A DNA stretch of 63,199 bases from Candidatus Woesearchaeota archaeon (GCA_014729015.1 WJKR01000037.1:1-63199), one strand, 5' to 3'. Counted from the first letter of the stretch, positions 17,923 through 40,829 are shown. The notes: generated by a model from the sequence alone, not told the origin. Numbers and translations are program-made.

Positions 17923-20900
17923 GTGAAGACCGGTAAGGGTGTTCTCAAGAAAACAGGACTGTTGCTTATCATCTTATTGCTCACGCTACTCCTCAGCGTC
18001 GTCGTAACAGCAACTGTTTTTGACGAGGGTGGGAGCTCGACGATTCCTGACTGTTCGGATGATGCTTCTGCAAACCAGTTCCAAATATTTACCATAGAGC
18101 CAACTAGCCAGAGTAGATTACCTCATGCACTCACCTGGGATCTCGAGGGTGCCCGTTGTCATACACACGATTGGGAGTCGTTTAAGAAGTGCGAGAAGGA
18201 CTTAACTAATAGCCCATCATATTATCTCGATCCTTTTAAGGATAATTTCTTTTCTGATGACACAGACTACTTCTCTGAGGGCGTGCCGAACCCTTCAAGG
18301 AATCCCTACTCCGGGAAGTGCTGGGACTCATCCTATATCATGCTGCAGGATTACTTTAACACAGGGATCATACTCGGAGGATACCTCTATGTCACTGACG
18401 AAGAACCCACCATCTATCAATGGTACCGAAGCAGCGTGCACACATATGCTGGTTGTGGTAAAATGGAAGCCGCTACCTCTTTCGCTCTGATCACTGTTCA
18501 CAACGTCGACACCGACCCGGACAATGATATACCTGATGGTACCATCCTGTACGATGATCGCGTCGAGTTCAAACCTCATGCCGCTTCGTGGCAACAATGT
18601 GCAGGCAGTGAATGGAAAGGGATGGAGGACCCTGATATAGGAGCCCAGTTCACGCTTGACCGAGGCGTCTACTTCATCACCATCACGTACGAGATGGAAA
18701 GTGCTGATTATGATGGCATTAATGAGAAAGGTTTAGGAGAAACGCGCTTCCTGCTCTCGGATCAATCAAACCTTAATGATAACCATTTACCCTATAATCA
18801 TATTGATAATACTGATTTCGTGATTAAGAACCACTGGCTCGCATATGGTGACGTCAGGTCCGAGGTGCAACCAAAAATAGACCTCGATGCTTCGGAAACG
18901 TTCTGTGAAATCGCCAATTACGATTACGAATCAAGTGTTGGGAAGGATTATCGTTGTTGTGGTGATGACGACTACGTCGACAAGGACTATGTTGAAGACG
19001 ATTATCGATGCGAAAAAACCAGTGATGGGTGGGAATGGGTCGACGTCGACCTCTCCACTATCTGCTATGAGGCTTCTTCCCAACAAGACGGAAGCACCCC
19101 TTTCAAAGAAGCGGCTGTGGCGGCAGGCGTCGACGCAGCCACGCTTATCAGCGGAGTCCATAATGGCAGCGACGGTTGCTGCGGTGACGACCAAGGATTC
19201 GCGTGCAAAAAGTCTGACGACATTACTTGTAGTGACCTAGAAGCAAGCGCTTGTGCAGGGCTAGAGCCCTATGGCTGCGAATGGGTGGAGATATACCTGC
19301 CAGAACTGTGCAATGTGCCGACAGAGGACGCCCGGACATCCTATTGTGCCAATTATCAAAAACAATGTGCAGGAATAAGTGAAAGCTATACTTGTGGTTG
19401 TAAGGATGGATCGCCAGAAGGTTGCATCAATTCCCGAAGTGTATGCTCGCCTGATCCCAATCTAAACTGTGAGGGAAGCCATTGCGAAGGCACCTTCGAC
19501 CACCCAGGAAAATGCAACACCTTCTCTACCGAAGAGGGCTGTCCTGACATCATATGTACGTGGACCGAAGTCGACGAGCAGGACTATGGCTACCTCTATG
19601 ACAACACACTCCTCTGCCTGGATGACTATGATAGTTCTAGAACACCCCCCATTATTTATGACGGCTCCGGCGATTGGAACTGGTGGGACGTCTCGGAAAC
19701 AGCGTACCAAGTCCATCTCGTGGACGGCAATGAGCCTGATGACATTGATTATCTCTCCAACCGCGAGGACTGGTTTGTGTGCAAGGCTGACCAAGAAGGC
19801 GTCGATATGTCTTCGTCGCCGGCAGTTGTGGGAAACCTCGAGCATCCTCGGGCGCCCAGCGGCGTCACCCTCGCCACGATGTGCGTACCGCACGAAGCGC
19901 TCGAAGACATCGCGGTAGCCAACACCTATGAGGGTGACACCTGGTCGAACTTCCTCTTCACCACGAAAAACTATTGCACCGAAACCATCGCTTCTTCCCA
20001 TAACAATGATCCTGTGCAGACATACAATAACTATCTCAATAAGAATTATGATTCCTATGCAGGCTATACCATCGATCAGATAGCAGACAACCTCATCGGC
20101 TGCTGCTACACGGATTTACAATCAATGCCGAAGGAACTCCCCGATATAGACACCCTCCATGATCCCGCAGTGTTCTTTAATCGGAGCCTCGGGTATGACT
20201 GGTGCTCGAGCATCACGTGCGTCGCCGACCAGAATCACGAGCTCTCAGAAACATCCCCTGGCGAGATAGGGAACGAGCCGACCACCAGTTTTAGGCCGAA
20301 AGAGGACTCTCACCGGTTCCCCGGCAACCTTCTCGCAGGAGAATCATTGACCTGCCAGCAGATTGCGAGTGGAAAGGACTATAATGAATGCACTGATGGT
20401 TCGAAGTGCGTTAGTGGTACGTCATACGTGCTGAGCGACGGCGACATCTGCTGCGTCGAAGGCACGTGTGAAGACCCAGATGACATCACCTGTGAGGACA
20501 TCGCCGAAGAAGGAGAGCAGTACTACACATTGCCTTTCTCAGGAGACTTTGCAGCATTCGAATGCTCAGAAACGGTCGTGGACGCCGGCGCCGAACAATG
20601 CTGCTTTGGAGAACCCGTGCCGCCAACACTGGACGTCAAGCTGTTCTCCTACATCGATAATGAGGCCCTCATCTGCCACGAACTGCCTAACGGGCGATCA
20701 GCGTTCGCCGAATGCTGCTCAGACCAGTACTGTTTTAACGCCCAGACATGGTCGGATCTCAATGACAACAACGGCCCGGACAACGGCCGCGTCTTCACCG
20801 AAGGGTCACAATTGCAGACCATCCTTAGCTTCGACCGCCTCGGAGAGGGCACCATCCCGAAAGACCTCATCTGGGAATACACCTTCACGACGTACAAGGA

Positions 20901-23900
20901 CAATCCTCAAACTAAGATTATTATCAATGGGGAAGACCTCCGCATCCGCGATGAGTATCGGAACTGGTCTGATTATGATTATCTCACGTTCGACATAGGC
21001 TACGAAGGTTTCCTCGACCTCGCTAACATCATACTCGATAATGATACTGATCGCCAGACCGTGCCGTCCGCATCGACCAGGAACTTCACTCTGGGTAGTT
21101 ATTCGCTCATCCCCGGCCTCCCGCCGAACAGGTGGCACCATGTCATCATACCTCTTGAACAATTTAACCAACAGACTAATAGTCAGGTCGGCAGGTTATA
21201 CTTTACCATCAACAATACCCAGGAGTTGTCGGACGCGTTCGTCAGGGTGTGGATGGACAACTTCGTCCTGCACAACGACACAATGAACGGTCCTGACACC
21301 CCTTACTGCTCTGGCCGCTACCGGCAATGGATCGATAACTTCTCCATCGGGGACTACAATTATGACAACCAAGTAGACGAGAACGACATCAATGACTATG
21401 GTCCGCCCATGGTGGCGTGCGACGCGCAGATGAGCTTCGAATGGACAGGGACGGAGTGCTGCGGCGCAAAGACGACCAAAGTTACTGTCAGTGATTACTC
21501 TACTGCGGAGTTCTACAACGACACCTTTGCCGGTTGCTGGGCCGGCGTCGCGGTCAATGACGGTCAGACCGTTGCGCAAGCGTTCGGGAACAACGTTGAC
21601 TACTGGCCGTACGTGCTGTACCACGAAGGAGACTTCATCAGCTGCAACACATCGATTATTAAGTCCGAAGATGTCGGTGGTAGGACTGTGGGCACAGATT
21701 TGGATGCCGACATCCCTGTCAGCAATGCCGACCTGTACGAGCAGTTTGACGATTGGTACTGCGACACGGCCCCGTCAGGGAGGGTGTGGAGCAAGCAATC
21801 AACCTGTGAAGATAATCCGAACACGAACTGGACGGGTACGCGGTGCTGCGGCTTGTGGACCACGAACGAGCAGGGCGAGTACTACAATGATACCTTGATG
21901 GGTTGCTGGAACGGGACAGCAGTCCTTGACAATAAGGTCCCGCCTGACAACCAGTCCATCCTCTACTTTCACAAGCATTTCTGGAGCTGCAACACCAGTA
22001 TGACATTCACTGATATCATTGGCGTAGGTCACACCACTGATGAGGGAGGGGACATCAACCTCACCCAACCGTTCACCATGCTCGGCGACTGGTACTGCGA
22101 CCCAGGAGATACCAATATGCCTGCTTCCTGGAAGCCGCTCAGCGAGCTCCAGCGGAACCGGTTGTTGGTCAGCAAGCTGTACAGCTTCACGGAGCAAGGC
22201 TGTGACTCGTTTGATTTGCACTGCGATGACTTCGACACGGCCATGACGAGCTCGTCGCTCATCAACTTGTCCAACGTAGGTGAAGAGATGCAAACCAAGC
22301 CGGAGACGGCGTGCGTGCTTAAGTGTTATCAAAAAGACAGGAATAACGAGCTCTTCGTCTCCCAAATCACCTTCGGCGTTCCGCTCGGCGAAGCCATGGA
22401 CCAGGAAGCCTTCTTCAGTAGCCTCACCGCGGCGTTCTATCCGCTGAACGGCACCGACAAGTACGGCTATTATCATGTCAACTGCTCCAAGGACGCTGAG
22501 GAGCAGCCTTTGCCGGATATCATCATGCTCGGCTCAGGAGCAGACCTGTTCACCGACTGCTACATCGACGCGACCAAGCAAAACAGCTACCTCCACGTGT
22601 CGTACAACAAGCCGTTGAAGCTCGCGCTCATCACCATGGAACAACCTGAAGAGCAAGGGTTCCTCATTGATTTCTGGCAGGCCCTCACCATGGAACAACC
22701 TGAAGAGCAAGGGTTCCTCACTGATTTCTGGCAGGCCATCACCGGCTTCTTCAGAGGACTCTTCGGCAATGAGGGGGGAACAACCAACCAGGCGGCGCCG
22801 ACCGTACCTATAGAATCCATCTTCCACTCAGACTTCGACCACGTCTACCTCAGCAGGCGAGGCGATCAGCGCATCATAGGTATCAAGGAAGAGGCTGATG
22901 GTACTGTGCACGTCAGGGTTGATTATCACAACCTGAGCGTGAACGTCCTGCCATTGGTGCATGCCTATCACTACCTCGGCCTGGATGAGAGCGAAGCAAA
23001 GGTGTGCACGGAGAACTACACGCAGACCGTCTACCTCTCATACTCTGACTCCATCAGCGACGATGTGGACTGGCGGTTCTTGACCAGTAACCTGCGCCTC
23101 AACGCGTCGACTACGCGGAAGGATTTCGGCGAGAGCGAGAACAGCTGCTTCTTACACAACGGCCAGATCGACAACGATGATGAGGAATGTGATGACACGT
23201 ACGGCGGGGACTACGGCACCATCGTCGCCTTCTCGTCTTCGCTTGATGAGGATGATCGCTGGTGCTCTGCAGAGAAGGATCGGGAGAAGGGCTGCACTGA
23301 CGGCAAGCTGAACGATTCGGCCTGCGGTGTCGAGCGGTACTATTTCTTCGTCACGAACAGTACCTATACAGGTAATCTTGGAGGGAAGGAGAGTGCTGAT
23401 GCCGCATGCCTCGGCCGCGCCGAGCAAGCATCGTTCTTTGAAGACATCCTTACCGACAATGAGGACCAAGCGTATGCCATCGTCTCTACCCAAGAGATGT
23501 CTGCGAGGGCGCCGTTCGCCACCACCCGGGACGCGCCCGTCTTCATCCACCTCTCTCCAAGAGGTAATCTTTCGCTCGGCACAATCGCAGAGCTTTTCCC
23601 TGATGTCAGTGCGTCGAGTGCGGGTTATAAGTACACCGATACGTTGCTGTACAACGCGTCAGGTGATGAAATATCAGATGATGAGTATTTGCAGTATGTT
23701 TGGACTGGTTCTGACTGGAAAGGATTACTGCACCATGTCCGCAGCATCAACTGCGACGACTGGACAAGTAATGAAAGTGGGGTTTACGGCTCTGTCGGCG
23801 CCCCGTTCCGCGCGGATATTCCGAGCCAATGGATTTACAACAACAAAGAACAATATTACTCTAAATTCCAATGCTCGACCGAGAAACGCCTCATGTGCCT

Positions 23901-23916
23901 CGTCCCTGCATATTGA
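17923..23916 (+). CDS. giant secreted cysteine-rich surface protein (1997 aa)
   Basis: - Uninterrupted ORF with an N-terminal hydrophobic anchor/signal KKTGLLLIILLLTLLLSVVV.
- Dozens of Cys, with CCG and CGC motifs.
- A jelly-roll/CBM-like segment (DYLTFDIGYEG...NRWHHVIIPLEQF...VWMDNFVL, ~20960-21280).
- A duplicated WTGT-CCG...SCNTS...DWYCD module.
- A C-terminal endostatin/DUF1554-like domain. Confidence 0.85.
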   Translation: MKTGKGVLKKTGLLLIILLLTLLLSVVVTATVFDEGGSSTIPDCSDDASANQFQIFTIEPTSQSRLPHALTWDLEGARCHTHDWESFKKCEKDLTNSPSYYLDPFKDNFFSDDTDYFSEGVPNPSRNPYSGKCWDSSYIMLQDYFNTGIILGGYLYVTDEEPTIYQWYRSSVHTYAGCGKMEAATSFALITVHNVDTDPDNDIPDGTILYDDRVEFKPHAASWQQCAGSEWKGMEDPDIGAQFTLDRGVYFITITYEMESADYDGINEKGLGETRFLLSDQSNLNDNHLPYNHIDNTDFVIKNHWLAYGDVRSEVQPKIDLDASETFCEIANYDYESSVGKDYRCCGDDDYVDKDYVEDDYRCEKTSDGWEWVDVDLSTICYEASSQQDGSTPFKEAAVAAGVDAATLISGVHNGSDGCCGDDQGFACKKSDDITCSDLEASACAGLEPYGCEWVEIYLPELCNVPTEDARTSYCANYQKQCAGISESYTCGCKDGSPEGCINSRSVCSPDPNLNCEGSHCEGTFDHPGKCNTFSTEEGCPDIICTWTEVDEQDYGYLYDNTLLCLDDYDSSRTPPIIYDGSGDWNWWDVSETAYQVHLVDGNEPDDIDYLSNREDWFVCKADQEGVDMSSSPAVVGNLEHPRAPSGVTLATMCVPHEALEDIAVANTYEGDTWSNFLFTTKNYCTETIASSHNNDPVQTYNNYLNKNYDSYAGYTIDQIADNLIGCCYTDLQSMPKELPDIDTLHDPAVFFNRSLGYDWCSSITCVADQNHELSETSPGEIGNEPTTSFRPKEDSHRFPGNLLAGESLTCQQIASGKDYNECTDGSKCVSGTSYVLSDGDICCVEGTCEDPDDITCEDIAEEGEQYYTLPFSGDFAAFECSETVVDAGAEQCCFGEPVPPTLDVKLFSYIDNEALICHELPNGRSAFAECCSDQYCFNAQTWSDLNDNNGPDNGRVFTEGSQLQTILSFDRLGEGTIPKDLIWEYTFTTYKDNPQTKIIINGEDLRIRDEYRNWSDYDYLTFDIGYEGFLDLANIILDNDTDRQTVPSASTRNFTLGSYSLIPGLPPNRWHHVIIPLEQFNQQTNSQVGRLYFTINNTQELSDAFVRVWMDNFVLHNDTMNGPDTPYCSGRYRQWIDNFSIGDYNYDNQVDENDINDYGPPMVACDAQMSFEWTGTECCGAKTTKVTVSDYSTAEFYNDTFAGCWAGVAVNDGQTVAQAFGNNVDYWPYVLYHEGDFISCNTSIIKSEDVGGRTVGTDLDADIPVSNADLYEQFDDWYCDTAPSGRVWSKQSTCEDNPNTNWTGTRCCGLWTTNEQGEYYNDTLMGCWNGTAVLDNKVPPDNQSILYFHKHFWSCNTSMTFTDIIGVGHTTDEGGDINLTQPFTMLGDWYCDPGDTNMPASWKPLSELQRNRLLVSKLYSFTEQGCDSFDLHCDDFDTAMTSSSLINLSNVGEEMQTKPETACVLKCYQKDRNNELFVSQITFGVPLGEAMDQEAFFSSLTAAFYPLNGTDKYGYYHVNCSKDAEEQPLPDIIMLGSGADLFTDCYIDATKQNSYLHVSYNKPLKLALITMEQPEEQGFLIDFWQALTMEQPEEQGFLTDFWQAITGFFRGLFGNEGGTTNQAAPTVPIESIFHSDFDHVYLSRRGDQRIIGIKEEADGTVHVRVDYHNLSVNVLPLVHAYHYLGLDESEAKVCTENYTQTVYLSYSDSISDDVDWRFLTSNLRLNASTTRKDFGESENSCFLHNGQIDNDDEECDDTYGGDYGTIVAFSSSLDEDDRWCSAEKDREKGCTDGKLNDSACGVERYYFFVTNSTYTGNLGGKESADAACLGRAEQASFFEDILTDNEDQAYAIVSTQEMSARAPFATTRDAPVFIHLSPRGNLSLGTIAELFPDVSASSAGYKYTDTLLYNASGDEISDDEYLQYVWTGSDWKGLLHHVRSINCDDWTSNESGVYGSVGAPFRADIPSQWIYNNKEQYYSKFQCSTEKRLMCLVPAY
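22633..22740 (+). repeat. in-frame 54-nt tandem duplication (2 copies, 52/54 identical)
   Basis: accatggaacaacctgaagagcaagggttcctca[t/c]tgatttctggcaggcc[c/a]tc occurs twice. It encodes TMEQPEEQGFL(I/T)DFWQA(L/I). Confidence 0.95.
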
Positions 23917-23939
23917 TGAGTCATAAAAAACCGAAGCAC

Positions 23940-23947
23940 ATAAAAAC
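23940..23947 (+). promoter_or_regulatory. TATA box for MEMO-like gene (leaderless)
   Basis: ataaaaac lies 24 nt upstream of the ATG at 23971. Confidence 0.4.
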
Positions 23948-23970
23948 CTCGCATCCTTTTGTCGTTCTTG

Positions 23971-24837
23971 ATGAGAAAACCGCGCTACGCAGGACTCTTC
24001 TATGAGAAAGGGGAAGTCTCCTTGAAAAAGCAGCTTCGGGAGTGCTTCGAAGGGCCGCGGGGACCGGGAGCGCTGCCGCCGGAACGACAAGCGGAGAAGA
24101 AAGCAGCGTTGCCCCAAGCGGTCATCGCGCCGCACGCCGGCTATCAGTACTCGGGCGCCTGCGCGGCGTGGAGCTACAAGGCGATGGGGGAGGCGCCCTT
24201 GGCAGACGTCTATGTCATATTAGCACCGAGCCATCACGGCAGCAGCTCAGGACTCACCCAGCAGACGTTCGAGACCCCCTTGGGACTGGTCAGGGTGGAC
24301 CAGGACCTCGCCAGGAGGCTCTTGGAGAAAGGCACGATCAAGGAGAACGACGCCATCCACGAACAAGAGCACGCCATCGAAGTGCACCTTCCTTTCTTAC
24401 AGTTCATCCACCAGGACGTGATCGAAAGGGTGAAGGTATTGCCTCTTCTCGTCAGCCAAGACGTGGACCTCCAGCAGTTAGCGGTTGACCTCAAAGAGGT
24501 ATTGGTGGACACAGAGAAAAAGGCGGTCATCATCGCCTCATCAGACTTCACGCACTACGGCCGGCACTACCATTACGTCCCGTTCGAGGAGAACGCGCAG
24601 GAACAGATAGCGGCCTTGGACAAGGGCGCCATCGACTTCATAAAGACAAGAGACCACGAAGGATTCTTGCAATACGTCGGTGACAAGTCAGCCACGATTT
24701 GCGGCGCTCATCCCATCGCGTTACTGCTCAGACTGGTCAAGCCGGGCGACGTCTTATTAGAGCAATACTATACTTCTGCGGCCATCACTGGCGACCAGAA
24801 GAATAGCGTGAGTTACGCGAGCATCGTCTTCATGTAG
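23971..24837 (+). CDS. MEMO1 / AmmeMemoRadiSam system protein B family protein
   Basis: Motifs RKPRYAGLFY, AVIAPHAGYQYSG, YVILAPSHH, EHAIEVHLPFLQ, ASSDFTHYG and ATICGAHPI. I prefer the ATG at 23971 over the TTG at 23959. Confidence 0.85.
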   Translation: MRKPRYAGLFYEKGEVSLKKQLRECFEGPRGPGALPPERQAEKKAALPQAVIAPHAGYQYSGACAAWSYKAMGEAPLADVYVILAPSHHGSSSGLTQQTFETPLGLVRVDQDLARRLLEKGTIKENDAIHEQEHAIEVHLPFLQFIHQDVIERVKVLPLLVSQDVDLQQLAVDLKEVLVDTEKKAVIIASSDFTHYGRHYHYVPFEENAQEQIAALDKGAIDFIKTRDHEGFLQYVGDKSATICGAHPIALLLRLVKPGDVLLEQYYTSAAITGDQKNSVSYASIVFM

Positions 24838-24855
24838 TTGCTTCAATGTGTTTCT

Positions 24856-24990
24856 TCAGTATGTTGATGTCCGTTCGACGTTTTCGAGCAAGGTTTTCGC
24901 CCTTTCCACGTCTTTCTCCTCTTTAGCTTGCAGGCTTCCTTCTTCAATGCCTTGCTTGTACACTTCCTCGAGGTTTTTTATGTTTTTCAT
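24856..24990 (-). CDS. 44-aa ORF translationally coupled to NTase gene (hand-translated, below track cutoff)
   Basis: Its ATG overlaps the NTase TGA (ATGA). The product is MKNIKNLEEVYKQGIEEGSLQAKEEKDVERAKTLLENVERTSTY. It has no recognisable motif and may be a remnant. Confidence 0.25.
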   Translation of the reverse strand: MKNIKNLEEVYKQGIEEGSLQAKEEKDVERAKTLLENVERTSTY

Positions 24991-25553: not shown

Positions 25554-25666
25554 TTTACTTAGGTTAAAGCTAAGTATTATTAATAGTTTTCGCATACTCA
25601 CCGATAAGGAACAGACGCGTTTCAAATAGCTGTTGCCTGCACCTGACCAGTGGCACCAGCCAGTAA

Positions 25667-28945: not shown

Positions 28946-31900
28946 GTGATTTCAGTGGAAATCCCGAACAAACTACTCATGGCACTCATCTTACTTGTCC
29001 TCTCACTCCTCACCTTGCCTGCGGTGCTCGGTGACGGGTGCTGTGTGCCTGAACAACCAGATGCTAATGCCGAACTCTTCTGCTACTCAGAAGATCAACA
29101 CGCTTCTCTTTTCGAGGGGGCCATGTCGTCGAGCTTGTGTCGGGGGGATCAGTTTACTGATCATACATGGTCTGAGGGGAAAAATTGCGATACTGACTTC
29201 CCGGAATGCGTCGAAGGATGCTGCTGCTATGAAAGCGCAACAGGCGAGACGGTCGGCATCTACACGACAGCAGTCGCTTGTCTCACTGACTCGGAACAGG
29301 CTATCAGCTTTCACTCAAATGCAGCCAGCACCACTAATAATTGCAACAATTATTGCAAAGGAATCAGTCCTGAGACGTACGAGGTCAACGGCACGGTTAA
29401 GAACACGTCCGACGAACCCGTGGTCGGTGCTAATGTTACTGTTGATTTTCCTGGAGGGCAATGGAATGTCACCAACGCTACCGGCGGATTCTCATTCCAG
29501 ATTATGAGCTCAACTAATAGGCACATCTTCTTCATCAACGCGTCGTGGTGCGAACAAACCGAAGATTACTCCATCACGGGCGACGTCGATCTTGAAATCA
29601 TCCTCGACTGCTCCACGGACGAAGAGAAGCCAGACACGTGTCCAGACCCTGTGTGGGAGTACGGCTTCGATGACGGCGAGGACCGCTGCGGCGTACCATA
29701 CGACTACGCCGAAGACATACAAGATTACGATGATTCTCCCGAGTGCAGTTACCAGGAGTGGCAAGGCCCACTCCCGTTCAAGTCATGCCCCCCTTCACCA
29801 GCGTGCGACAATGACGGCATCCTGGATGAGGGTGAGGCGTGCGACGGTGGCGTGTTCCGCGACGGCGGCTCTTGTCAAGACTACGGCTACTCCTTTGGGA
29901 GCGTCTCATGCCGCGACTGCGAGGTCATCCTCACGGGCTGCGAGCGATGCCCAGCCGAGGCGGATGCCTGCACCTCAGCGCAGTGCAAGGAATGCCCAAT
30001 ATGCCAGGAGGCAGAGGTGTGCCAGGCACGTGCCTGCCTGGACGAGCAGCCGTACGGCGTGGCCGCGACGACCCAGACGGGAAAGTCATCCATCCTCGTC
30101 ACGTGGCGGTTCAACGACGCCTGCATCGCTCACGTGCCAAGATTCCATGTGGACGTGTGCACACCACCACCAACCCAAAGTTCTGCCGAGTGGTGCAGTG
30201 ACAACGACGCGTACGATGAGGTCACCATCGCGAAGACGGACCTCTCTTCCTCGCAGCCGTTCAGCCACCCCTACTCAGGGAGCGACGGCTTGGACGGCCG
30301 TACCACTTACTGCTTCAATGTCAGCGCGAATATCGAGGAGGAGGGAGAACAAGCCACGACGAGCGCGGAAGCCGGATGGGTGTGCGCCACGACCGGTGAT
30401 CAGTACTGCATGGAAGGGTTGCACGAGGACGAGTTCTGCGCTCATGCTATTACTAAACTTAAGGATTACCCGCACATCAAGCCAAATAGTAGGCTTTTGT
30501 GTAACCCTGCTAACCAGATCATCTTGTTAGAGGACTGCCTCTTGGCGCAATGTGTTGATGACGTCGCTGGTACGACTATTTGCAAGACGAACGAGCAATG
30601 CCGATTGTGCAACGGCCTGTTCAACATGTACGGCTATTACCACTTCTATGATGATGATAAGGATCTTATCGTTCCGTTCCTTTCTGGCGGAACAGAAATA
30701 GATTTGTCCTGCGAGAACAAGAACATCTATCAGCAGAATCCGAGTCCTGATACGAGGCCGGCGTGTTATGACGAACGTACCAAGACGGTCGCTGATTATC
30801 TTGACGAGTGCAACGAGGTGCAGACGTGCTATGACTATCACACGAAGCAGGCGTGCGAGGACAACCCGTGCAGGAAGCCGTTCTTGCAAGGTAATTGCAC
30901 GTGGCGGCCGTTGCTGGATGAAGAGGGCAACTCGCTCGGCGACCAGTTCGGCCTCGGCGTGTGCGCGCCGGACGACGTAGCGCTGGCTGAGTGCGACCGA
31001 TGCCAATCAGATGACACGACGTTGCCCGCGTGCACCGAGGAGCTGTGCAGCCTGTACGCGCCCGTCACGGAAGGCGTGCCCGGGTGCTATTATCTCCAAG
31101 ACGATAAGCGATGCGTGAGGAGCGACGAGGTGAGCTGCACGAACTATACCCGGCGCCGGGAGTGCGTCGGCGACGAAAACACCCCTGTGCAGGTGAACGC
31201 CACGTACAGCGAGGAAGACCGGATAAATGGCGGCCACAACGTCACGCAGCGGAGCAAGGACGTCCTCAGCATCGGGCTGTGCGAATGGGTCGATATCGGG
31301 ACCGACGCCATGTGCGTCAAGAACGCGGATAACCATACGTTCTCCTCCAAGGGCCTGCCGTCCAGCGATTGCGACGACGTTGCTACCGAGGACAAGACGA
31401 CGTGCTTGCTCGACTTCGAACCGCCAGTGACCGAGCTCTTCCTGGCCACGGCAGCCGAGCAGGAATGGCATGAAGAGGATTATCCGGTGTACAGCTTCGA
31501 GCGGCCGTTCAACTACGACGTCAAGGACAACGCGTTTGCGTTGAGCAAATTGCGGACATGGTTCGGCTTCGGTACAGGCACGCCCTATCCGATCCACACC
31601 TTGGAGCAGCTGAAAAGCCAGACTGCAGAGAAAGACGGCACGTTCAACATCACGTATTACTCGGCAGACCCGGCGAAGAACCTCGAACAGGTCAAGAACG
31701 CCACGATCATCATGGACAACACGCCGCCGACCTTCGTCGAACATGACTTCACCAACACCACTGCCGGGTTCCTCGTCGCAGAGGACGAGTGGCGCAGCAA
31801 CCTCACGATCAATTACTCCTTCACCGACGACCACGGGCCGATAAGGTGCAACGGCACGCTCCTTTCCACGACCTCTACGCGCTTCCCCGGCAATCGTTTT

Positions 31901-32776
31901 CTCTCCTTCAAGTCCGGCACGGTCGTCCAGCAGAACTACACCTACCTGCAGGACGACCAGTACTTGTTCCGCATGAACTGCTCTGACCACCCGTTCCTCA
32001 GCAACACGGTCATCAATGAGAGCTGGTTCGTGCTCGAGGCGGACAGCAGCATCACCGACCCGCAACCCGTAAGGAAAAAGTTCAGCGTCGATGACTTCCC
32101 GCTCACCATCAACATCACCACGAACAGGTCAGCGAGTTGCTGGTTCAATGGCTCATCGACACAGTTCTTGGACAGTGCTACGGGCACAGAGCACAACTAC
32201 ACGTTCGATCAACCGTTGCCGCACGGCCTGTACTTCTTCAACGTCAGTTGCGAGTTCGAGGACGGCAAGGTCACCAAGAACAACCCGTCAGACACGATAT
32301 GGTTCAGCGTGGATAACGAATCACCGACGGCTGGCATCATCGACGTTGAGGAGCGGCAACCATACGACGGGTGGCCGTACCGCGAAGACCTCACCATAAC
32401 CTTCGAGTGCGATGACAACGATTCCTCCCTCGTCAGGACCGTGGTCGACGCAGCAGGCCATACTGAGGACTTATGGGACGGCAACTTCGACGACTCGACC
32501 GTGCAGTGGTGCCGTGACGACAACGAGACAGACCGGGAATGCTACTTTGATGAATGGGACGGCCCATACCTCGCCTTCAGTGCTGATGACGACTTTGACG
32601 ATAATGAGCGCTGGCTCCACTACCGTTGTACTGACGCTGGTGGCAACGTCGGAACTACGGAAACCCAGTACTTGTTCGTCAGGAACCTGCAGGTCAAGGT
32701 CGCCGGCGTCAAGATCATCACTCCTGATAGGACAGAATACTTACCGGATCCATTAGTGCCCCCAGTCACTCATTGA
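28946..32776 (+). CDS. giant secreted cysteine-rich surface protein (1276 aa)
   Basis: - Sec-type signal LLMALILLVLSLLTLPAVLG followed by DGCC.
- A CarboxypepD_reg-like segment (YEVNGTVKNTSDEPVVGANVTVDF...GGFSFQI).
- One CDNDGILDEGEACDGG Cys-rich repeat.
- Many N-x-S/T sequons.
The start could instead be the ATG at 28979. Confidence 0.85.
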   Translation: MISVEIPNKLLMALILLVLSLLTLPAVLGDGCCVPEQPDANAELFCYSEDQHASLFEGAMSSSLCRGDQFTDHTWSEGKNCDTDFPECVEGCCCYESATGETVGIYTTAVACLTDSEQAISFHSNAASTTNNCNNYCKGISPETYEVNGTVKNTSDEPVVGANVTVDFPGGQWNVTNATGGFSFQIMSSTNRHIFFINASWCEQTEDYSITGDVDLEIILDCSTDEEKPDTCPDPVWEYGFDDGEDRCGVPYDYAEDIQDYDDSPECSYQEWQGPLPFKSCPPSPACDNDGILDEGEACDGGVFRDGGSCQDYGYSFGSVSCRDCEVILTGCERCPAEADACTSAQCKECPICQEAEVCQARACLDEQPYGVAATTQTGKSSILVTWRFNDACIAHVPRFHVDVCTPPPTQSSAEWCSDNDAYDEVTIAKTDLSSSQPFSHPYSGSDGLDGRTTYCFNVSANIEEEGEQATTSAEAGWVCATTGDQYCMEGLHEDEFCAHAITKLKDYPHIKPNSRLLCNPANQIILLEDCLLAQCVDDVAGTTICKTNEQCRLCNGLFNMYGYYHFYDDDKDLIVPFLSGGTEIDLSCENKNIYQQNPSPDTRPACYDERTKTVADYLDECNEVQTCYDYHTKQACEDNPCRKPFLQGNCTWRPLLDEEGNSLGDQFGLGVCAPDDVALAECDRCQSDDTTLPACTEELCSLYAPVTEGVPGCYYLQDDKRCVRSDEVSCTNYTRRRECVGDENTPVQVNATYSEEDRINGGHNVTQRSKDVLSIGLCEWVDIGTDAMCVKNADNHTFSSKGLPSSDCDDVATEDKTTCLLDFEPPVTELFLATAAEQEWHEEDYPVYSFERPFNYDVKDNAFALSKLRTWFGFGTGTPYPIHTLEQLKSQTAEKDGTFNITYYSADPAKNLEQVKNATIIMDNTPPTFVEHDFTNTTAGFLVAEDEWRSNLTINYSFTDDHGPIRCNGTLLSTTSTRFPGNRFLSFKSGTVVQQNYTYLQDDQYLFRMNCSDHPFLSNTVINESWFVLEADSSITDPQPVRKKFSVDDFPLTINITTNRSASCWFNGSSTQFLDSATGTEHNYTFDQPLPHGLYFFNVSCEFEDGKVTKNNPSDTIWFSVDNESPTAGIIDVEERQPYDGWPYREDLTITFECDDNDSSLVRTVVDAAGHTEDLWDGNFDDSTVQWCRDDNETDRECYFDEWDGPYLAFSADDDFDDNERWLHYRCTDAGGNVGTTETQYLFVRNLQVKVAGVKIITPDRTEYLPDPLVPPVTH

Positions 32777-32796
32777 CAACGAAAAAGAGGTCACGT

Positions 32797-35700
32797 ATGA
32801 GAACACTCCCTGTCATCCTTGTCATCCTCTTCCTCTTCCCAGTCGTGCTCTCAGCATCCTACCAGGACCAACAAGTGATCACCTACACGATCAAGGATGA
32901 CATCACGCACCCGCAGCCGAACATCTCGGTGTCGTTCGGCGAGCAGCCCGTATGCATCCTCGACGCCGAGTTGTCCTTTGAGGATGCTTCGCAGTCAGAC
33001 CCACCAAGCATCATCTGTGATGAGACTCCTTGCCGCCAGGAGTACAACTTCTCCATCGGCGACGACAACTATCTGATCGATGCCGATTACGTGTTCTACG
33101 CCAAAGCGCGGGACAACGACGACAACACCATCAAGATCTACGTCCACTTCACCATCGACTCGCCCGAGCAGCACGTCTACCTCGTCTCACCAGTCAACCC
33201 ATACGTCAACAACACAGAGGACGACTTCGGCATGGCAAAAAAGCAATCGTTCAACCTGCGAGTGCGGCTCGAACAAGCATTGGGCAGGCCTGCAGAAGGA
33301 TGTCGGTGGGCGTATATCGAAAGCCTCCCCGGAAGCTATGCCAGTGGCGAGGAACTCTTCAACAACCTCGCCCAGGAGAAAGCTCACTTCAGCTCACGAT
33401 CCTCGGACGGCTACTACTTCAACGACACGGACTTCTCGCTCGCAGAATTAGCGCAAGGAGTGCTGCACGAATTCATCGCCGTGTGCAAAGAGAGTGAAGG
33501 CCGCTACAGCCGCAGCCGGATGTTCCTCGGCTGGGATGATGACAAGCCGGTCTTCGATGAGGAAAAGACCCGCATCTTGCCCGACCATCCCGGCATACAG
33601 GGCAATGACCACGCCTACATCGACGACCAGAACCACGCAGTCGCGACCATCAACGTGACCACTGATGACCGGGTCCTGTGCAACGTCACCAACGTGCGCT
33701 ACCCCCCATTATACGGAGCAAAGTACCGTGACTACGGCGATGACGACAAGTATTTCTGGCTCAGCCTAGGACGCTTTACCATCACGAACCCCGAAGCCGA
33801 AGACTTCAACACCACGCACCTCTTCGCGCGCATCTCGTTCGAACTCCTCAGGACAGAGACGCCATCCGTCAATCCGCCGTACAACTACACGTTCAACGTG
33901 ACGTGCGAGAACATGGCAGGCCTCACCAACTCATTACTCCTCGACGCCAGCATCAACTTCAGTAACACCATAGGGCTAGAACAAGTCTCCCCGAAATCGC
34001 AACACTACACTGACACGAACGACGTCGACTTCGAGTTCACCACGGACGTCGAGGCGGTCTGCAATTTCTTCTTCGACGACGATGACGAAACCTCCGACCT
34101 GGACGAAACGATCACCGAGGGCACCTATCACTACGCCCTGACCGAGAACGACCTCGACGACGGCTCATACGACTACGAGTTCACTTGCCACCTTGCCGGT
34201 TACACCCCACAATCCAAGAGCGGAACGATTTCCGTCGACACCGAAGCGCCACCAGCACCGGACATTAACACCACCGACACCAAGGTTTGCAACAATAACA
34301 CTCCTGAGCTGGAGATCGAGTTCGGCACGGCCGGGAACGTAGACCGCTACGACTACAGGATTACGAGCGACAACGGCTACTCCGCCACCGGCAGCGACAC
34401 GAACGGCGAGGTGACGCACGAAATAAGCGGCCATCCCATCGCCTGGGAAGAAACCTTCACCATCACCGCCAACGCGACGGATGCAGCAGGCAACACCGGC
34501 AGCCCAGCGCAGCACACCCTCACCTACCTGCCGTACACCTGCGACGGGAAAAAGCCGAGCATCACCACGAGCAAGAACTACACGTCTACCGGCATGGACA
34601 TCGCGATCACGTGCTCGGACGACGGGACCGGCTGCACCGACCGCTACGACTACAGCATACTCCCGCCAGACAGCACCTGCGACGACGCCGACTACGGACA
34701 GCACGAGCAGAACGGCGGGGCCGTGGCCATCACCGGCGACCAACTGTTGTGCTACCGCGTCACCGACAAGGCCGGCAACAACGAGACAGGCAGCACCACG
34801 GTCATGACGAGCTTCCCCATCGAGATCGTCGAGCCGAGCTTCGGCATCGCCAACACCACGACGTTCAACATCACCATCAAGACGGAACGATCGGCGAGCT
34901 GCAAGTTCGACTTCAACCACGGCAACCCCGGCGACCTCGAGATGATGTACAACGACTTCCCATGGGACCTCGACGAGACCGACGACACAAACAAATACCG
35001 CTATGAGGGCTTCAACCCCGTATCGCAAGGAGCAAGCATCTGCGAAGGCGAACCGGCCTGCGCCGTGTCCATCATCGTCATCTGCAATGTGCCGCCACGA
35101 TACTACTACACCCCCTTCATGATAGGCTACGACACCACGCCGCCACGCATCGACGCGTACGCCTCGCCAGCGACGCTAAGAGAATACGGCAACCTCGAAG
35201 CAGAGCTCATCGTGGAGAGCGACGACGGCACCTACTGCACCTACCAGGACATCGAGGGCGAGGACGCGGGCAACTTCGGTACATTAGGACCCGACCAAGA
35301 CTCCTCCTACCAACAACACCACCAAGCAAGTATCGGCCCGTTCTCCCCACCCACCGGCAACAACGATTCCTACAACGTCACCTACAACGTCACGTGCAAG
35401 AACCAAGCAGGCATCATCGTCAACGACGTCGCCACCGTCACCATCGCGCCCACGGACGAAATCGGCGTCACCATCACCACGCCGAGCGAGCACCGCGCAC
35501 GCAGCGTGACCCTCAACGTGACCACCGTGCTCCCGGCCCGGTGCAACTACACGTTCAACCCCAAACAACCATCGACCCCGCTCGCCCCGGACGACGAGGA
35601 CAAACGACACGCAGCCACCGAATCGTTCGCCGCGGACGGCGAGTACGACCTGGACGTCGAATGCGTCTCGCTGAACCACCTCTACAAAGGAGGAGCGTCG

Positions 35701-37953
35701 AAAGAGCTCACCATCGACGCCACCGGCCCAGAGATGCTCGACATCCTCACCAGCGACCCCACCTGCTCGCTCGACACCATCAAGGCCAAGTTCTTCAGCA
35801 ACGCGACCATCATCGGCCTCGACGCGTACAACTACTCCATCACGAACAGCAGCGGCGAGCTCACGCCCTGGACCAAGGTCAGCACGAAGTCAGCCCTCAC
35901 CATCACGGACCACGCAGAACTCATTGCAGGCAACGAGTACACGATCAAGGCACAAGCCATCGACGACTTCGACAGGAGCAGCGGCGCCCTCACCAAGACC
36001 GTCACCGCGCAACCAGCAACGCACGAGAACTGCGACGACGATTCCCCGACCGCGGCCATCATCCTACAAGAGGTGTACGGAGGCGTCGAAGCCACGGTCA
36101 TCTGCGAAGACGACGGGAGCGGCTGCAGCGACCACTACGAATTCTTCCACCTGACCAACCAATTAACAGCGACGTGCAAGGACGGCACGTACGAATCACT
36201 CGCCTACGAAGACCAACCCGTGACGCTCCGACGATCAGGGACTGCGTGCGCCATCGTCTACGACCACGCAGGCAACAACGACACCGCCAGCACGAAGATC
36301 GAAGTCGTGCGGCACTGCAGTAACGGCATCCAAGACCCGCAAGAAGACGGCGTGGATTGCGGCGGCGTGTGCCCGACGAGCTGCGAAGACTGCAGTAACG
36401 GCCGGCAAGACGCGTTCGAAGACGGCGTGGATTGCGGCGGCGTGTGCCCGACGAGCTGCGAAGCCATCGAGAACTGCGGCAACGGCTGGGTCGACCCAGG
36501 AGAGGAGTGTGACGGCACCCCGACCGTGGGCTGCGACCAGTTCGGGTTCGCCGGCGGCACGGTCACCTGCAATCATTGCAAGATCGACACCACGACGTGC
36601 ACGGCACCCACGACAGGCGTGTGCGGCGACGGCGTCGTCAACCCGGGAGAGCAATGCGACGGCACCGTGCCCGCAGGAGTGACATGCGAGGACTTCGGCA
36701 TGACCAGCGGCACGCTCAGCTGCGATGCGTGCAAGATATCCACCACGAGCTGCGAAGGCCTCCCCGGCACGTGCGGCGACGGCACCATCGGGCCGGGCGA
36801 GAGCTGCGAAGAGGACGCTATGCACGACCTCACCTGCGAGGACTTCGGGCTCGTCAGCGGCACCCTCGCCTGCGCTGCTTGCGAGCTCAACACGAGCAAC
36901 TGTCTGAACGGTTACTGCGGCGACGACGAGATCGACGAGGGAGAGACGTGCGACGGCCTCGCCTGGGGCGACATCACCAGCTGCGAGGACCTCTCCACAG
37001 ATTTCATCGGCGGCAAGCCGGTCTGCGGCAATGACTGCCACTTCGACACCTCCGCCTGCGCGCCGGGAGAAGCGACGATCAACGAGACCACGACGTGCCT
37101 CGACGATAGCGACTGCCCGACCGACGAGGCGTGCGAGGCGGGCGTCTGCCAACCGATCGCCGGGCCGGAACCAGGACCGGGACCGATGCCTCCTCCTGAG
37201 AAGGACGACACGGTCGCCCTCGCGCTCCTCATCGCAGGGGCCGCACTGCTGCTCGGCGGCGCAGGCTACCTGGCGTACACCACGTTCATCAACCCGCCTC
37301 GGCCAGCCACGCCGAAGACGCCGCCCCAACCGCAGCTCAGCCCCGAAGAGGCGGAACGACGGCAAGCGGCGAAGCTCGCCGAGGAGAAAGAGCGGTTAGC
37401 GTTGCAGAAACAGGCGCGCGCAAAGGCGCAGAAGGCGAAGGCCAAGGAGCGGCGGGCGTTGCTGTCCAGCTTCAACCGGGACGAGCTCGCGGGCAAGGCG
37501 AAGGGCCGAGCGAAGCCTTCCTTGAGGCAGCCAACCCCTCCGAAGCAAGCGCAGGAGCCCGCGGGGAAACCGTCTGCGCAGCAACGGCCGAAGGCAAGGG
37601 ATGACGTGTTCACCGGCCTCGACCGGCTCAACAAGCAGCCCGTCAAGAAGACGAACGAGCAGGTGTTCGATCAGCTCTCACAGCTCTCAGGATCGTCCAA
37701 GAACAAGCTCAAATCCACGATCAACAAAGGCAACCCGACGGCTGACGAGCTCGCCGAGCTGTTCCAGGAAGCGGAGAAGAAGGACGTCACGCCCAAGGCG
37801 GTGACCCCGGTGTTCCAGCACTTCATCGACAAGGGAAAACTCGACCACGCGACGGTGCATGAGACCGTGCACAAGCTCCACGAGCAGGACAAGCTCACCG
37901 CCAACCAGAAGGAGAAGATTCTGGGTGACATCACGCCGGGGGAGGGGGCATGA
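32797..37953 (+). CDS. giant type-I membrane surface protein (1718 aa) with Ig-like and Cys-rich repeats and a cytoplasmic Lys/Ala/Glu tail
   Basis: - I prefer the ATG at 32797 (SD agaggt 7 nt upstream) over the TTG at 32773.
- Sec signal MRTLPVILVILFLFPVVLSA.
- Repeated C.DDG.GC.D.Y...D.AGN Ig-like modules.
- DCGGVCPTSC and CGDG..PGE.CDG repeats.
- TM helix VALALLIAGAALLLGGAGYLAY, followed by a ~220-aa charged tail. Confidence 0.85.
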   Translation: MRTLPVILVILFLFPVVLSASYQDQQVITYTIKDDITHPQPNISVSFGEQPVCILDAELSFEDASQSDPPSIICDETPCRQEYNFSIGDDNYLIDADYVFYAKARDNDDNTIKIYVHFTIDSPEQHVYLVSPVNPYVNNTEDDFGMAKKQSFNLRVRLEQALGRPAEGCRWAYIESLPGSYASGEELFNNLAQEKAHFSSRSSDGYYFNDTDFSLAELAQGVLHEFIAVCKESEGRYSRSRMFLGWDDDKPVFDEEKTRILPDHPGIQGNDHAYIDDQNHAVATINVTTDDRVLCNVTNVRYPPLYGAKYRDYGDDDKYFWLSLGRFTITNPEAEDFNTTHLFARISFELLRTETPSVNPPYNYTFNVTCENMAGLTNSLLLDASINFSNTIGLEQVSPKSQHYTDTNDVDFEFTTDVEAVCNFFFDDDDETSDLDETITEGTYHYALTENDLDDGSYDYEFTCHLAGYTPQSKSGTISVDTEAPPAPDINTTDTKVCNNNTPELEIEFGTAGNVDRYDYRITSDNGYSATGSDTNGEVTHEISGHPIAWEETFTITANATDAAGNTGSPAQHTLTYLPYTCDGKKPSITTSKNYTSTGMDIAITCSDDGTGCTDRYDYSILPPDSTCDDADYGQHEQNGGAVAITGDQLLCYRVTDKAGNNETGSTTVMTSFPIEIVEPSFGIANTTTFNITIKTERSASCKFDFNHGNPGDLEMMYNDFPWDLDETDDTNKYRYEGFNPVSQGASICEGEPACAVSIIVICNVPPRYYYTPFMIGYDTTPPRIDAYASPATLREYGNLEAELIVESDDGTYCTYQDIEGEDAGNFGTLGPDQDSSYQQHHQASIGPFSPPTGNNDSYNVTYNVTCKNQAGIIVNDVATVTIAPTDEIGVTITTPSEHRARSVTLNVTTVLPARCNYTFNPKQPSTPLAPDDEDKRHAATESFAADGEYDLDVECVSLNHLYKGGASKELTIDATGPEMLDILTSDPTCSLDTIKAKFFSNATIIGLDAYNYSITNSSGELTPWTKVSTKSALTITDHAELIAGNEYTIKAQAIDDFDRSSGALTKTVTAQPATHENCDDDSPTAAIILQEVYGGVEATVICEDDGSGCSDHYEFFHLTNQLTATCKDGTYESLAYEDQPVTLRRSGTACAIVYDHAGNNDTASTKIEVVRHCSNGIQDPQEDGVDCGGVCPTSCEDCSNGRQDAFEDGVDCGGVCPTSCEAIENCGNGWVDPGEECDGTPTVGCDQFGFAGGTVTCNHCKIDTTTCTAPTTGVCGDGVVNPGEQCDGTVPAGVTCEDFGMTSGTLSCDACKISTTSCEGLPGTCGDGTIGPGESCEEDAMHDLTCEDFGLVSGTLACAACELNTSNCLNGYCGDDEIDEGETCDGLAWGDITSCEDLSTDFIGGKPVCGNDCHFDTSACAPGEATINETTTCLDDSDCPTDEACEAGVCQPIAGPEPGPGPMPPPEKDDTVALALLIAGAALLLGGAGYLAYTTFINPPRPATPKTPPQPQLSPEEAERRQAAKLAEEKERLALQKQARAKAQKAKAKERRALLSSFNRDELAGKAKGRAKPSLRQPTPPKQAQEPAGKPSAQQRPKARDDVFTGLDRLNKQPVKKTNEQVFDQLSQLSGSSKNKLKSTINKGNPTADELAELFQEAEKKDVTPKAVTPVFQHFIDKGKLDHATVHETVHKLHEQDKLTANQKEKILGDITPGEGA
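36316..36465 (+). repeat. 75-nt in-frame tandem repeat (2 copies) encoding CSNG.QD..EDGVDCGGVCPTSCE
   Basis: The copies lie at 36316-36390 and 36391-36465. The distal ~48 nt (gaagacggcgtggattgcggcggcgtgtgcccgacgagctgcgaag) are identical in both. Confidence 0.95.
36475..37059 (+). repeat. four ~145-nt coding repeats: CG(N/D)G...(P/E)GE.C(D/E).. cysteine-rich modules
   Basis: Units start at 36475, 36622, 36772 and 36916. They read CGNGWVDPGEECDG, CGDGVVNPGEQCDG, CGDGTIGPGESCEE and CGDDEIDEGETCDG, each followed by C.DFG...G...C..C...T..C. They resemble the Myxococcus cysteine-rich repeat. Confidence 0.8.
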
Positions 37954-40824: not shown

Positions 40825-40829
40825 ATTAC

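Follow-up and report, generated by a model that had tools for sequence, protein, structure and literature searches.

The window analyzed in this report is a 63,199-bp contig (positions are counted from its first nucleotide) from a Candidatus Woesearchaeota metagenome-assembled genome (MAG; GCA_014729015.1, WJKR01000037.1:1-63199). Its plus strand bears four giant open reading frames (ORFs), designated here as A, B, C, and D, which are predicted to encode Cys-rich exported proteins and which lead directly into an array of prepilin-type genes. Giant A (17923-23916) encodes 1997 aa from a GTG start codon, giant B (25699-28875) encodes 1058 aa from ATG, and giant C (28946-32776) encodes 1276 aa from GTG. 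Giant D encodes 1726 aa if translation begins at TTG (32773-37953) or 1718 aa if it begins at the ATG at position 32797, and with the latter start the four same-strand ORFs described in a first-pass annotation (1997, 1058, 1276, and 1718 aa) were all recovered. The series is interrupted, as that annotation had proposed, by a MEMO-like gene and an antisense nucleotidyltransferase, both of which were identified with Pfam. The former (23959-24837, plus strand) encodes a MEMO/AmmeMemoRadiSam system protein B (PF01875, 1.2e-58; TIGR04336, 5.8e-63), and the latter lies at 24987-25625 on the minus strand (PF01909, 5.6e-9). Upstream of A is a gene for a protein similar to RNase P protein component 3 (p30; 17268-17855, plus strand; NCBIfam NF003023, 6.3e-7, below the cut-off). 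The NCBI records name A as "hypothetical protein GF367_02855" and B as "GF367_02870".

A single hydrophobic segment was found at the N-terminus of each giant, in line with the signal or anchor sequence that had been placed at each start; a second segment of this kind occurs only in D (aa 1480-1498). Proteins A and C carry Sec-type signals and no membrane anchor, and contain 80 and 72 Cys residues, respectively. The four proteins are not paralogs of one another. Two features are common to C and D only: a short Cys-rich acidic repeat (aa 280-364 of C are similar to the Cys-rich repeats of D by BLAST) and a type of beta-sandwich module, the latter relationship being apparent at the profile level (hhalign probability 96%, E 1.3e-9).

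The N-terminus of B is a class III (prepilin) signal in which LKA precedes QATLFFILGIVLL / QATLFFILGIVLLAVFSF, matching the expected pattern of a short basic start, a [KR]-[GA] cleavage motif, and ~20 hydrophobic residues without charge. The class III-like N-terminus previously noticed in the second giant is real and was found to be invariant across the B family. The family consensus is KKGQxTxFVILGIV, which is canonical for archaeal signals of this class, with Q12 present in 55 of 55 aligned sequences and T14, F16, and G20 in at least 90% of them. In an exhaustive HMMER search, 952 representatives passed E ≤ 1e-3, of which 241 also passed E ≤ 1e-30; almost all of the sequences found are about 1000 aa in length and align from residue ~10. 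The named members are all annotated as "hypothetical protein" from Woesearchaeota or Nanoarchaeota, and the family is covered by no Pfam entry. Protein B has about 49 Cys residues, and about 25 Cys positions are invariant in the family.

The structure of B was modelled with AlphaFold2 using the 55-sequence alignment, and a mean predicted local distance difference test (pLDDT) score of 81.9 was obtained. In this model, a 52-residue helix (residues 5-56, predicted pLDDT >90) leads into an alpha/beta head that ends near aa 335. Ig/cadherin-like beta-sandwiches follow in a chain, and the last part of the protein (aa 650-1058) is Cys-rich and is modelled less confidently. The N-terminal 340 residues modelled alone gave a pLDDT of 87.2 and a predicted TM-score (pTM) of 0.84. 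A Foldseek comparison of the ectodomain with the PDB returned SiiE, protocadherins, contactin/neurofascin, SraP, and the Aureispira grappling hook GhpA with E values of ~1e-6. The adhesin-like modules that had been suggested for the giants are supported in B, whose ectodomain, as modelled, is similar to the module chains of Ig/cadherin-type adhesins. As judged from the model, B has a pilin signal and a pilin-like helix, but a new head.

Pfam and NCBIfam scans were conducted with whole proteins and with overlapping windows. Protein A gave no match in Pfam or the PDB, and PDB sequence searches with A and D, and with profiles of A, B, and C, returned nothing meaningful. An internal duplicated Cys/Trp module of ~120 aa is found in A (21400-22122, plus strand), with the pattern W-[TS]-G-T-x-C-C-G ... 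G-C-W-x-G ... S-C-N-T-S ... D-W-Y-C-D. Conservation in the A family is highest in the first copy, and C1166, W1174, T1175, G1176, C1179, C1180, E1196, D1200, C1205, W1206, and G1208 are invariant in the family alignment. Further downstream is a 54-bp in-frame tandem duplication (22629-22743, plus strand; Tandem Repeats Finder (TRF) period 54, 2.1 copies, 95% match; MEQPEEQGFL.DFWQA..). The C-terminus holds a DUF1554-like domain preceded by one Cys-rich acidic repeat (23320-23913, plus strand); the PF07588 score of 19.8 bits (E 7.6e-4) is below the cut-off of 27.5, and one ortholog reaches 3.1e-5. Protein A is predicted to be secreted and is probably glycosylated.

In protein C, a CarboxypepD_reg-like beta-sandwich and one Cys-rich acidic repeat were recognized, together with a core at aa 280-800 that is dense in Cys and modules at the C-terminus that are predicted to be disulfide-bridged beta-sandwiches. 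The CarboxypepD_reg match (PF13620, aa 147-188) scored 22.6-23.9 bits against a gathering cut-off of 32.3. Three of six C orthologs match this family, the best at 7.8e-11, as do the C-like genes of two further related loci (L113 and L114; precomputed hits). Protein D is predicted to be a type I membrane protein with a signal peptide, Ig-like modules, Cys-rich repeats, a transmembrane (TM) helix, and a cytoplasmic tail. The Ig-like assignment is below threshold (Big_13, 25.5 versus 27 bits), and Big_13 was found in two of six D orthologs; one D ortholog carries TSP3 Ca-binding repeats. The Cys-rich repeat region of D (36305-37182, plus strand) contains two 25-aa units of the form C.NG.QD..EDGVDCGGVCPTSCE and four 6-Cys acidic repeats of ~42 aa. 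It includes a 75-bp in-frame tandem duplication (36314-36463, plus strand; TRF period 75, 2 copies, 90% match) that encodes a "DCGGVCPTSCE" module. The 6-Cys units are of the CGDG..PGE.CDG type, with four in tandem in D and one in C (by eye and by C-D BLAST), and the corresponding TIGR02232 score in D is 20.3 bits against a cut-off of 20.8. The TM helix (37210-37266, plus strand; hydropathy 2.11 over TVALALLIAGAALLLGGAG) is followed by a Cys-free tail of ~230 aa that is rich in Lys, Glu, and Gln, and both the helix and the basic tail are retained in the consensus of the D-family alignment.

The adhesin-type modules claimed in the first-pass annotation therefore fared unevenly. The CarboxypepD_reg domain is sub-threshold in the window and clear in orthologs, the CGDG repeat falls just under its cut-off, and the Ig-like modules were detected below threshold only. 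The PKD and CBM labels were not sustained, since PKD gave no hit even at E ≤ 5 and the only CBM match was CBM30 at E 0.072. The duplications of 54 bp in A and 75 bp in D are the only tandem repeats that TRF identified in the giants; both are recent and show that modular growth is still under way.

The extreme Cys richness noted at the outset was confirmed. Cys accounts for 4.0, 4.6, 5.6, and 3.8% of the residues in A, B, C, and D, respectively, compared with 0-1.3% in SecY, the YidC-like protein, MEMO, and RPA. The motifs then singled out are present but few: CCG occurs four times in A, DGCC once each in A and C, CGGVC twice in D, and CxxC 0, 1, 6, and 4 times in A, B, C, and D. In each of the four families, no residue is better conserved than Cys. 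Across three orthologs of A, 56 of the 67 aligned Cys residues (84%) are invariant versus 20% of all residues, and Trp is next at 71%. Relative to the window proteins, Cys conservation is 78% for A, 95% for B, 85% for C (versus 25% for all residues of C), and 57% for D, at overall identities of 23-35%. The proteins were also said to be rich in N-x-S/T sequons, and this holds for all four giants, with 27, 14, 29, and 28 sequons in A to D, or ~1.6-2.8 times the number expected from shuffled sequences (z = 2.7, 2.3, 6.7, and 4.3). From the Cys conservation and the sequon enrichment, we infer that the ectodomains are disulfide-stiffened and N-glycosylated. In one distantly related locus (L116), an oligosaccharyltransferase STT3/AglB is encoded a few genes downstream of a B-like gene (21897-24764, plus strand), which would fit heavy glycosylation of the cluster products. 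The same cluster also holds an inserted PIN/RHH toxin-antitoxin pair.

Downstream of D, the products of 16 consecutive genes (37950-50939) begin, on direct reading, with [KR][KRQ][GA] followed by a hydrophobic N-terminus. An automatic prepilin motif rule accepted 13 of the 18 called block genes; it accepted none of the window's 30 other genes and 24 (1.4%) of the 1673 genes in background loci. The first four genes, p1 (37950-38483), p2 (38480-39499), p3 (39481-39999), and p4 (39996-40505), are on the plus strand, and their products share RR[AG]Q before the hydrophobic stretch. The overlaps at D/p1, p1/p2, p2/p3, and p3/p4 are 4, 4, 19, and 4 nt, respectively, and similar overlaps continue on to the last gene. 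Such a run of overlaps is the signature of one translationally coupled operon. The earlier proposal of a 33-kb block for exported proteins, made up of the giants together with the pilin array, is upheld; the genes are tightly packed, with 4-nt start/stop overlaps that run from D into the pilins.

The proteins p1-p4 are candidate minor pilins. They are followed on the plus strand by three small prepilin-type genes, s1 (40567-40824, 85 aa), s2 (40830-41087, 85 aa), and s3 (41100-41651, 183 aa), whose products have in common a 6-Cys mini-domain, C..GG.C......C...........C......CC. Of these, s1 and s2 are candidates for the major subunits of a filament, and s1-s3 may be major pilins with a knotted head. 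The remaining genes of the array, all on the plus strand, encode a prepilin-type protein with a TPM domain (41848-43227; TPM, 2.1e-9), p43 (43387-44271) and p44 (44268-44726), a prepilin-type protein with a DnaJ domain (44733-45977; DnaJ, 1.5e-12), and p45 (45984-46862), p46 (46859-47338), and p47 (47335-47865); the p43-p47 products were assigned from their N-terminal motif. A homolog of the TPM protein follows four pilins in L098 (21455-22163), and the TPM protein may for this reason be a conserved member of the cluster. A J domain behind a pilin-like N-terminus would be odd if it were located outside the cell.

The last gene of the block (47862-50939, plus strand) overlaps p47 by 4 nt and encodes a prepilin-type murein hydrolase of 1025 aa with 24 Cys residues, in which NNKKG precedes VIQNSLIAIGFLIAVTIV. 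The protein contains an N-acetylmuramoyl-L-alanine amidase domain (Amidase_2, 8.2e-27) and a lytic transglycosylase domain (SLT, 6e-9). Since the archaeon has no murein of its own, this enzyme points to bacterial cell walls as a target.

Related loci were collected from 80 genomes anchored on secY and from 32 metagenomic loci that were fetched with a 10-sequence alignment of the B family. Orthologs of A, C, and D were identified using tblastn and hidden Markov models (HMMs) built from syntenic orthologs. When 5.8 billion proteins were searched with a word index, A and C matched only themselves and D matched nothing. Because the synteny-guided tblastn and HMM searches did find relatives, the orphan appearance of A, C, and D is a limit of sensitivity. 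The one-strand order RNase-P-p30 - A - (MEMO) - B - C - D - p1 - p2 - p3 - p4 was found to recur in ~30 Woesearchaeota/Nanoarchaeota loci, at identities of only 22-40%. MEMO is followed by B in 10 loci, B by C in 16, C by D in 12, and D by p1 or p2 in 6. The first-pass annotation had asked whether orthologous giants flank pilin genes in relatives, and they do, in the same order in many related genomes.

Orthologs of A occupy the same position in L001, L002, L087, and L115, with lengths of 2004, 1832, 1870, and at least 1990 aa, respectively, and identities of 23-34%. Orthologs of C directly follow B in L113 and L115 as well. Precomputed gene calls gave independent confirmation of the order: L113 and L114 contain B, a 2428-aa CarboxypepD_reg protein, and an 1182-aa protein, and L115 contains A (at least 1990 aa), MEMO, B, C, and D. 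Orthologs of p1-p4 follow D with their order kept in L098, L105, L108/109, and L111/112. The more distant loci have, in place of C and D, a single protein of ~2050 aa that matches both profiles, and the position of A is held by a gene for 1580-1760 aa that is not recognized by the A profile.

Orthologs of RNase P p30 are found directly upstream of an A- or B-like gene in L001, L002, L087, L099, L101, L104, L105, and L111, and the p30 ortholog of L116 carries PF01876 (RNase_P_p30). This gene is a housekeeping gene that marks the conserved upstream boundary and is not a functional part of the cluster. MEMO lies between A and B in L001, L002, L082, L083, L086-L088, L091, L100, and L115 and is not in the cluster of L098 and L101-L112. 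It is a cytoplasmic, syntenic passenger in the closer relatives, and its retention between A and B may reflect either a functional link or hitch-hiking. The gap between MEMO and B is 861 nt in the window versus ~40-190 nt in L001, L002, and L115. Since no gene sits in this short gap in those three loci, the nucleotidyltransferase is an insertion specific to this genome. It gives a weak match to MntA-like antitoxins.

The first-pass annotation had also placed the block immediately after the ribosomal/secY core. This is correct for the window, L001, L002, L079, and probably L087, and does not hold generally, with 3 of the 80 secY-anchored genomes showing such an arrangement. In L079, a 2093-aa ORF (2881-9162, minus strand) with 8.5% Cys and D-like Cys repeats precedes secY on the opposite strand. 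Together with a further ORF of 10.6% Cys (1-848, minus strand), it stands in place of the ribosomal-protein operon. The A-D profiles do not recognize the large Cys-rich ORFs (4.9-7.1% Cys) that are also found near secY in L063 and L047. In L089 and L092, three divergent genes lie upstream of B; the idea that they encode a type IV filament (TFF) ATPase and two platform proteins was rejected, the 805-aa gene being a class I tRNA synthetase and the others having no family match.

When the window is compared with its two closest relatives, identity reaches 82-84% for SecY and 69-72% for MEMO, versus 27-34% for A and 36-42% for the first 400 residues of B. Strain-level hypervariability, which had been raised as a possibility, was not seen in the one informative contig pair. 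Of three near-identical contig pairs, two are essentially identical. In the third, 42 of 46 differences fall in one 390-nt tract of the gene at the A position; the differences are mostly synonymous, and none is found in the D/C gene. In this tract (L108, 1-390; L109, 4159-4548), 33 of the 42 differences are synonymous and 9 are nonsynonymous; the two contigs, which come from different samples, are otherwise 100% identical. The tract looks like recombination from a diverged strain.

The block at 17923-50939 is a conserved, operon-like cluster of Woesearchaeota/Nanoarchaeota, and we consider there to be a somewhat better than even chance that it encodes a type-IV-filament-associated complex of adhesion or host contact. 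The proposed mechanism is as follows. All components are exported, as the sequences show, with A, C, and D using Sec-type signals and B and ~16 smaller proteins using class III signals. The ectodomains would be stiffened by many conserved disulfides and N-glycosylated. Protein B would enter or cap a filament, or be held in the membrane, by means of its pilin-like helix, and would project an Ig/cadherin-like chain with a variable Cys-rich tip. The conserved minor-pilin set would be supplied by p1-p4, and the 85-aa proteins s1 and s2 could serve as the major subunits. Protein D, a predicted type I membrane protein that is coupled to p1, would anchor the complex to the cell, and the anchorless A and C would be retained by protein-protein contacts. 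The fast-diverging surfaces, built on a fixed Cys skeleton, would attach to partner or host cells or to surfaces, and the prepilin-type amidase/transglycosylase would cut bacterial peptidoglycan locally. The genes with their export signals, their conservation, order, and coupling, the Cys skeleton, and the fold class of the B ectodomain are established by the analysis; entry into a filament, assembly of a complex, adhesion, and a bacterial target of the hydrolase are inferred. Large, Ig-rich, adhesin-like proteins are a common feature of archaeal TFF loci (10.64898/2026.04.22.720090).

Several results weigh against this proposal. No TFF assembly ATPase (PilB/ArlI) or platform protein (PilC/ArlJ) was found among the window genes, and no TFF assembly genes were found in the flanks of L089, L092, L094, L098, and L116, which hold tRNA synthetase, RNR, GlmS, MCM, and similar housekeeping genes. 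Likewise, no class III signal peptidase (Peptidase_A24: PibD, FlaK, EppA) was matched among the window proteins scanned. Given these results, assembly of a filament would require that the ATPase, the platform protein, and the prepilin peptidase be encoded in other parts of the genome. No curated pilin family of Pfam or NCBIfam was matched (E ≤ 0.1-0.5) by p1-p4, s1-s3, or p44, the sole trace being ComGC at E 0.046 for p3, and the same is true of the N-terminal domain of B. The head of B (aa 60-335) has no significant structural neighbor in the PDB and resembles no solved pilin (Foldseek, best E 0.12). The Foldseek TM-scores for the ectodomain are low (TMt 0.2-0.4, ~10% identity), because the match is to generic beta-sandwich chains. 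The link of A and C to a filament is provided by gene order alone. Class III signals in archaea are also found on surface proteins that form no filament, such as the sugar-binding proteins of Sulfolobus.

The main rival explanation is that the giants constitute an S-layer or envelope scaffold, with A and/or C as lattice subunits and D as a membrane stalk in the manner of SlaA/SlaB, and with the pilins unrelated or loosely coupled. We regard this as unlikely. The proteins are large, secreted, and rich in sequons and beta-sandwiches; they diverge rapidly and yet are single-copy and syntenic. Two of them are anchorless and one has a C-terminal TM anchor, as in SlaA/SlaB. The S-layer candidates of DPANN archaea, none of which has been determined, are described as glycosylated, Ig-rich, and lineage-specific (10.1101/2023.10.27.564410), and some adhesin-like proteins of TFF loci resemble S-layer proteins (10.64898/2026.04.22.720090). 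Against a scaffold of this type stand the 4-nt overlap of D with p1, the conserved order of giants followed by pilins, and the prepilin signal of B itself, and four different giants exceed the needs of known S-layers. Codon adaptation, a measure that was not discriminating overall, is 0.46 for A and 0.54 for C, under the ribosomal-gene mean (0.69) and not above the values of ordinary genes.

The second rival, to which we assign a slightly lower probability still, is a non-filamentous surface assembly, similar to a bindosome or pseudopilus, in which class III signals are used for export and membrane tethering only and the giants are independent adhesins or nutrient-capture proteins encoded in a common operon. 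At no locus that we have seen is an ATPase or platform gene in or near the cluster. The Amidase_2/SLT, TPM, and DnaJ proteins bear the same N-terminus as the pilins, and the presence of this sequence on enzymes and on proteins with odd domains suggests that it is used as a general tether. The head of B is also not a recognizable pilin fold. However, four small pilin-like genes in a fixed order together with two 85-aa ones resemble a set of minor and major pilins, and the 52-residue N-terminal helix of B is of the length expected for packing in a filament.

The first-pass annotation had raised the question of disulfide or metal-cluster chemistry, and a third alternative is that Cys residues at this density bind metals or carry redox chemistry, such as metal clusters or extracellular electron transfer, rather than forming structural disulfides. 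This appears very improbable. The Cys content is indeed very high, with CC and CxxC motifs, and the relatives come from anoxic habitats (as judged from record titles, e.g., Zodletone and groundwater), where disulfides may be unstable. In addition, MEMO is syntenic with the giants, and members of this family have been reported as redox or metal-binding proteins. However, MEMO has no signal peptide and is not in the cluster of distant loci. The heme motif CxxCH is found in none of the four giants, CxxC is rare, and the Cys residues are distributed among beta-sandwich modules and 6-Cys units classed with the TIGR02232 "disulfide repeat", forming a conserved structural skeleton that is confined to the ectodomains and leaves the tail of D free of Cys. 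These results favor structural disulfides over metal chemistry. That the giant ORFs are artefacts of assembly or annotation (chimeric contigs, or pseudogenes read through by chance) has a negligible probability. The contig does derive from a MAG, and several first-pass database searches gave no relatives. However, full-length, collinear orthologs of matching size, with conserved Cys positions, are present in independent assemblies from different samples and pipelines, and the sole tandem repeats are in frame and none is frame-breaking, so that the frameshifts of which the first-pass annotation had warned are not the source of these ORFs.

Returning to the filament-associated complex, the closest described systems are the archaeal TFF loci (systems 1, 2, and 4A/4B/4G), which combine class III pilins with large beta-sandwich "adhesin-like" proteins, as found here; some occur in DPANN archaea, and a function in adhesion or recognition has been inferred (10.64898/2026.04.22.720090). 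Those loci are defined by an ATPase and a platform protein in the locus, whereas the cluster described here has neither, in the window or in the related loci. The present cluster also differs in having four distinct giant families in a fixed order, one of which is itself a prepilin of 1000 aa. A term search of the same text gave neither an extreme Cys scaffold nor a terminal prepilin-type murein hydrolase for the TFF loci, the one mention of "cysteine" being for a Pyrobaculum pilin (10.64898/2026.04.22.720090).

The bacterial minor-pilin/PilY1 tip complex is the best functional analogy for D, A, and C with p1-p4. In the Pseudomonas fimU-pilVWXY1E cluster, about four minor pilins and a non-pilin adhesin of ~1000 aa or more prime pilus assembly and sit at the tip of the pilus. 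There is no relationship in sequence or domains, and no Pfam or NCBIfam match to the PilY1/PilC beta-propeller was found in A-D or their orthologs; the envelope here is archaeal, there are four giants instead of one, and location at a tip is hypothetical. In the modular type IV pilins, such as PilB and PilC of Streptococcus sanguinis, extra modules are joined to a pilin N-terminus so that the pilin is itself the adhesin. Protein B would fit the same logic, but it is several times larger (1058 aa), has a head with no known structural relative, and contains ~49 Cys.

The best structural matches of the B ectodomain are to giant Ca-binding beta-sandwich adhesins (SiiE of Salmonella, cadherins, and GhpA), and the proteins described here are also acidic. 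This is a generic likeness of fold only; the secretion route differs, and those proteins have no Cys-rich scaffold. The six-Cys repeats of C and D, and the "repeat + DUF1554-like" end of A, resemble Myxococcus and Leptospira proteins with TIGR02232 (myxo_disulf_rpt) and DUF1554, but the matches in the window are all just under the cut-offs and these modules make up <15% of the giants. The SPEARE proteins of Nanohaloarchaeum are very large, lineage-specific surface proteins of small, host-dependent archaea that have been proposed to function in host contact. Putative S-layer or lectin-like surface proteins have been reported for Nanobdella (10.1101/2023.10.27.564410). Like A-D, these DPANN proteins are very large, lineage-specific, glycosylated, and assigned a proposed role in host contact, but no sequence relationship was found, protease and nuclease domains are absent here, and the SPEARE and Nanobdella giants are not described in a pilin operon.

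Woesearchaeota are tiny, probably host-dependent archaea and, to our knowledge, none has been cultivated so far. Little is reportedly known of how DPANN archaea recognize, attach to, and breach host cells (10.1101/2023.10.27.564410). A search of the literature for this operon, or for Cys-rich giants in Woesearchaeota or DPANN, returned no description, which does not prove that none exists, and the main comparative-genomics paper on the phylum makes no mention of pili, adhesins, or peptidoglycan. Large DPANN surface proteins and pili, and adhesins in TFF loci, were already known. What is new is the conserved architecture of four giants, the large unnamed B family with its new head, the frozen Cys skeleton, the detachment of the cluster from assembly genes, and the terminal prepilin-type murein hydrolase.

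Four apparent orphans have now become a defined, conserved, and searchable cluster that provides at least four new protein families and concrete candidates for an attachment machinery, which could serve as immuno-EM antigens, as metaproteomics targets, and as markers for studying co-occurrence with possible hosts. The contrast between an almost frozen Cys skeleton and freely drifting sequence clearly illustrates a fast-evolving archaeal recognition surface that is scaffolded by disulfides. If the S-layer explanation were true, the giants would be candidate envelope proteins of Woesearchaeota, which would be equally useful. The terminal murein hydrolase hints at bacterial partners. A more specific form of the filament proposal, which we put forward as a doubtful one, is a lineage-wide host-contact organelle of a kind not described before, in which a type IV filament with a tip complex of B, A, C, D, and the four minor pilins recognizes the partner cell by its rapidly evolving surfaces and the prepilin-tethered hydrolase opens the peptidoglycan of that cell. 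If this is correct, at least this lineage would target bacteria and not archaea.

Outside the block, the product of a 505-aa ORF (737-2254, plus strand) matches both the PriS and PriL primase families and may be a fused primase. Three ORFs of ~500 aa at 57403-58875 (minus strand), 58968-60575 (plus strand), and 60677-62188 (plus strand) have no Pfam match. The last of these has a codon adaptation of 0.29 and a GC content at third codon positions (GC3) of 0.59, both of which are low and therefore suggest a foreign origin.

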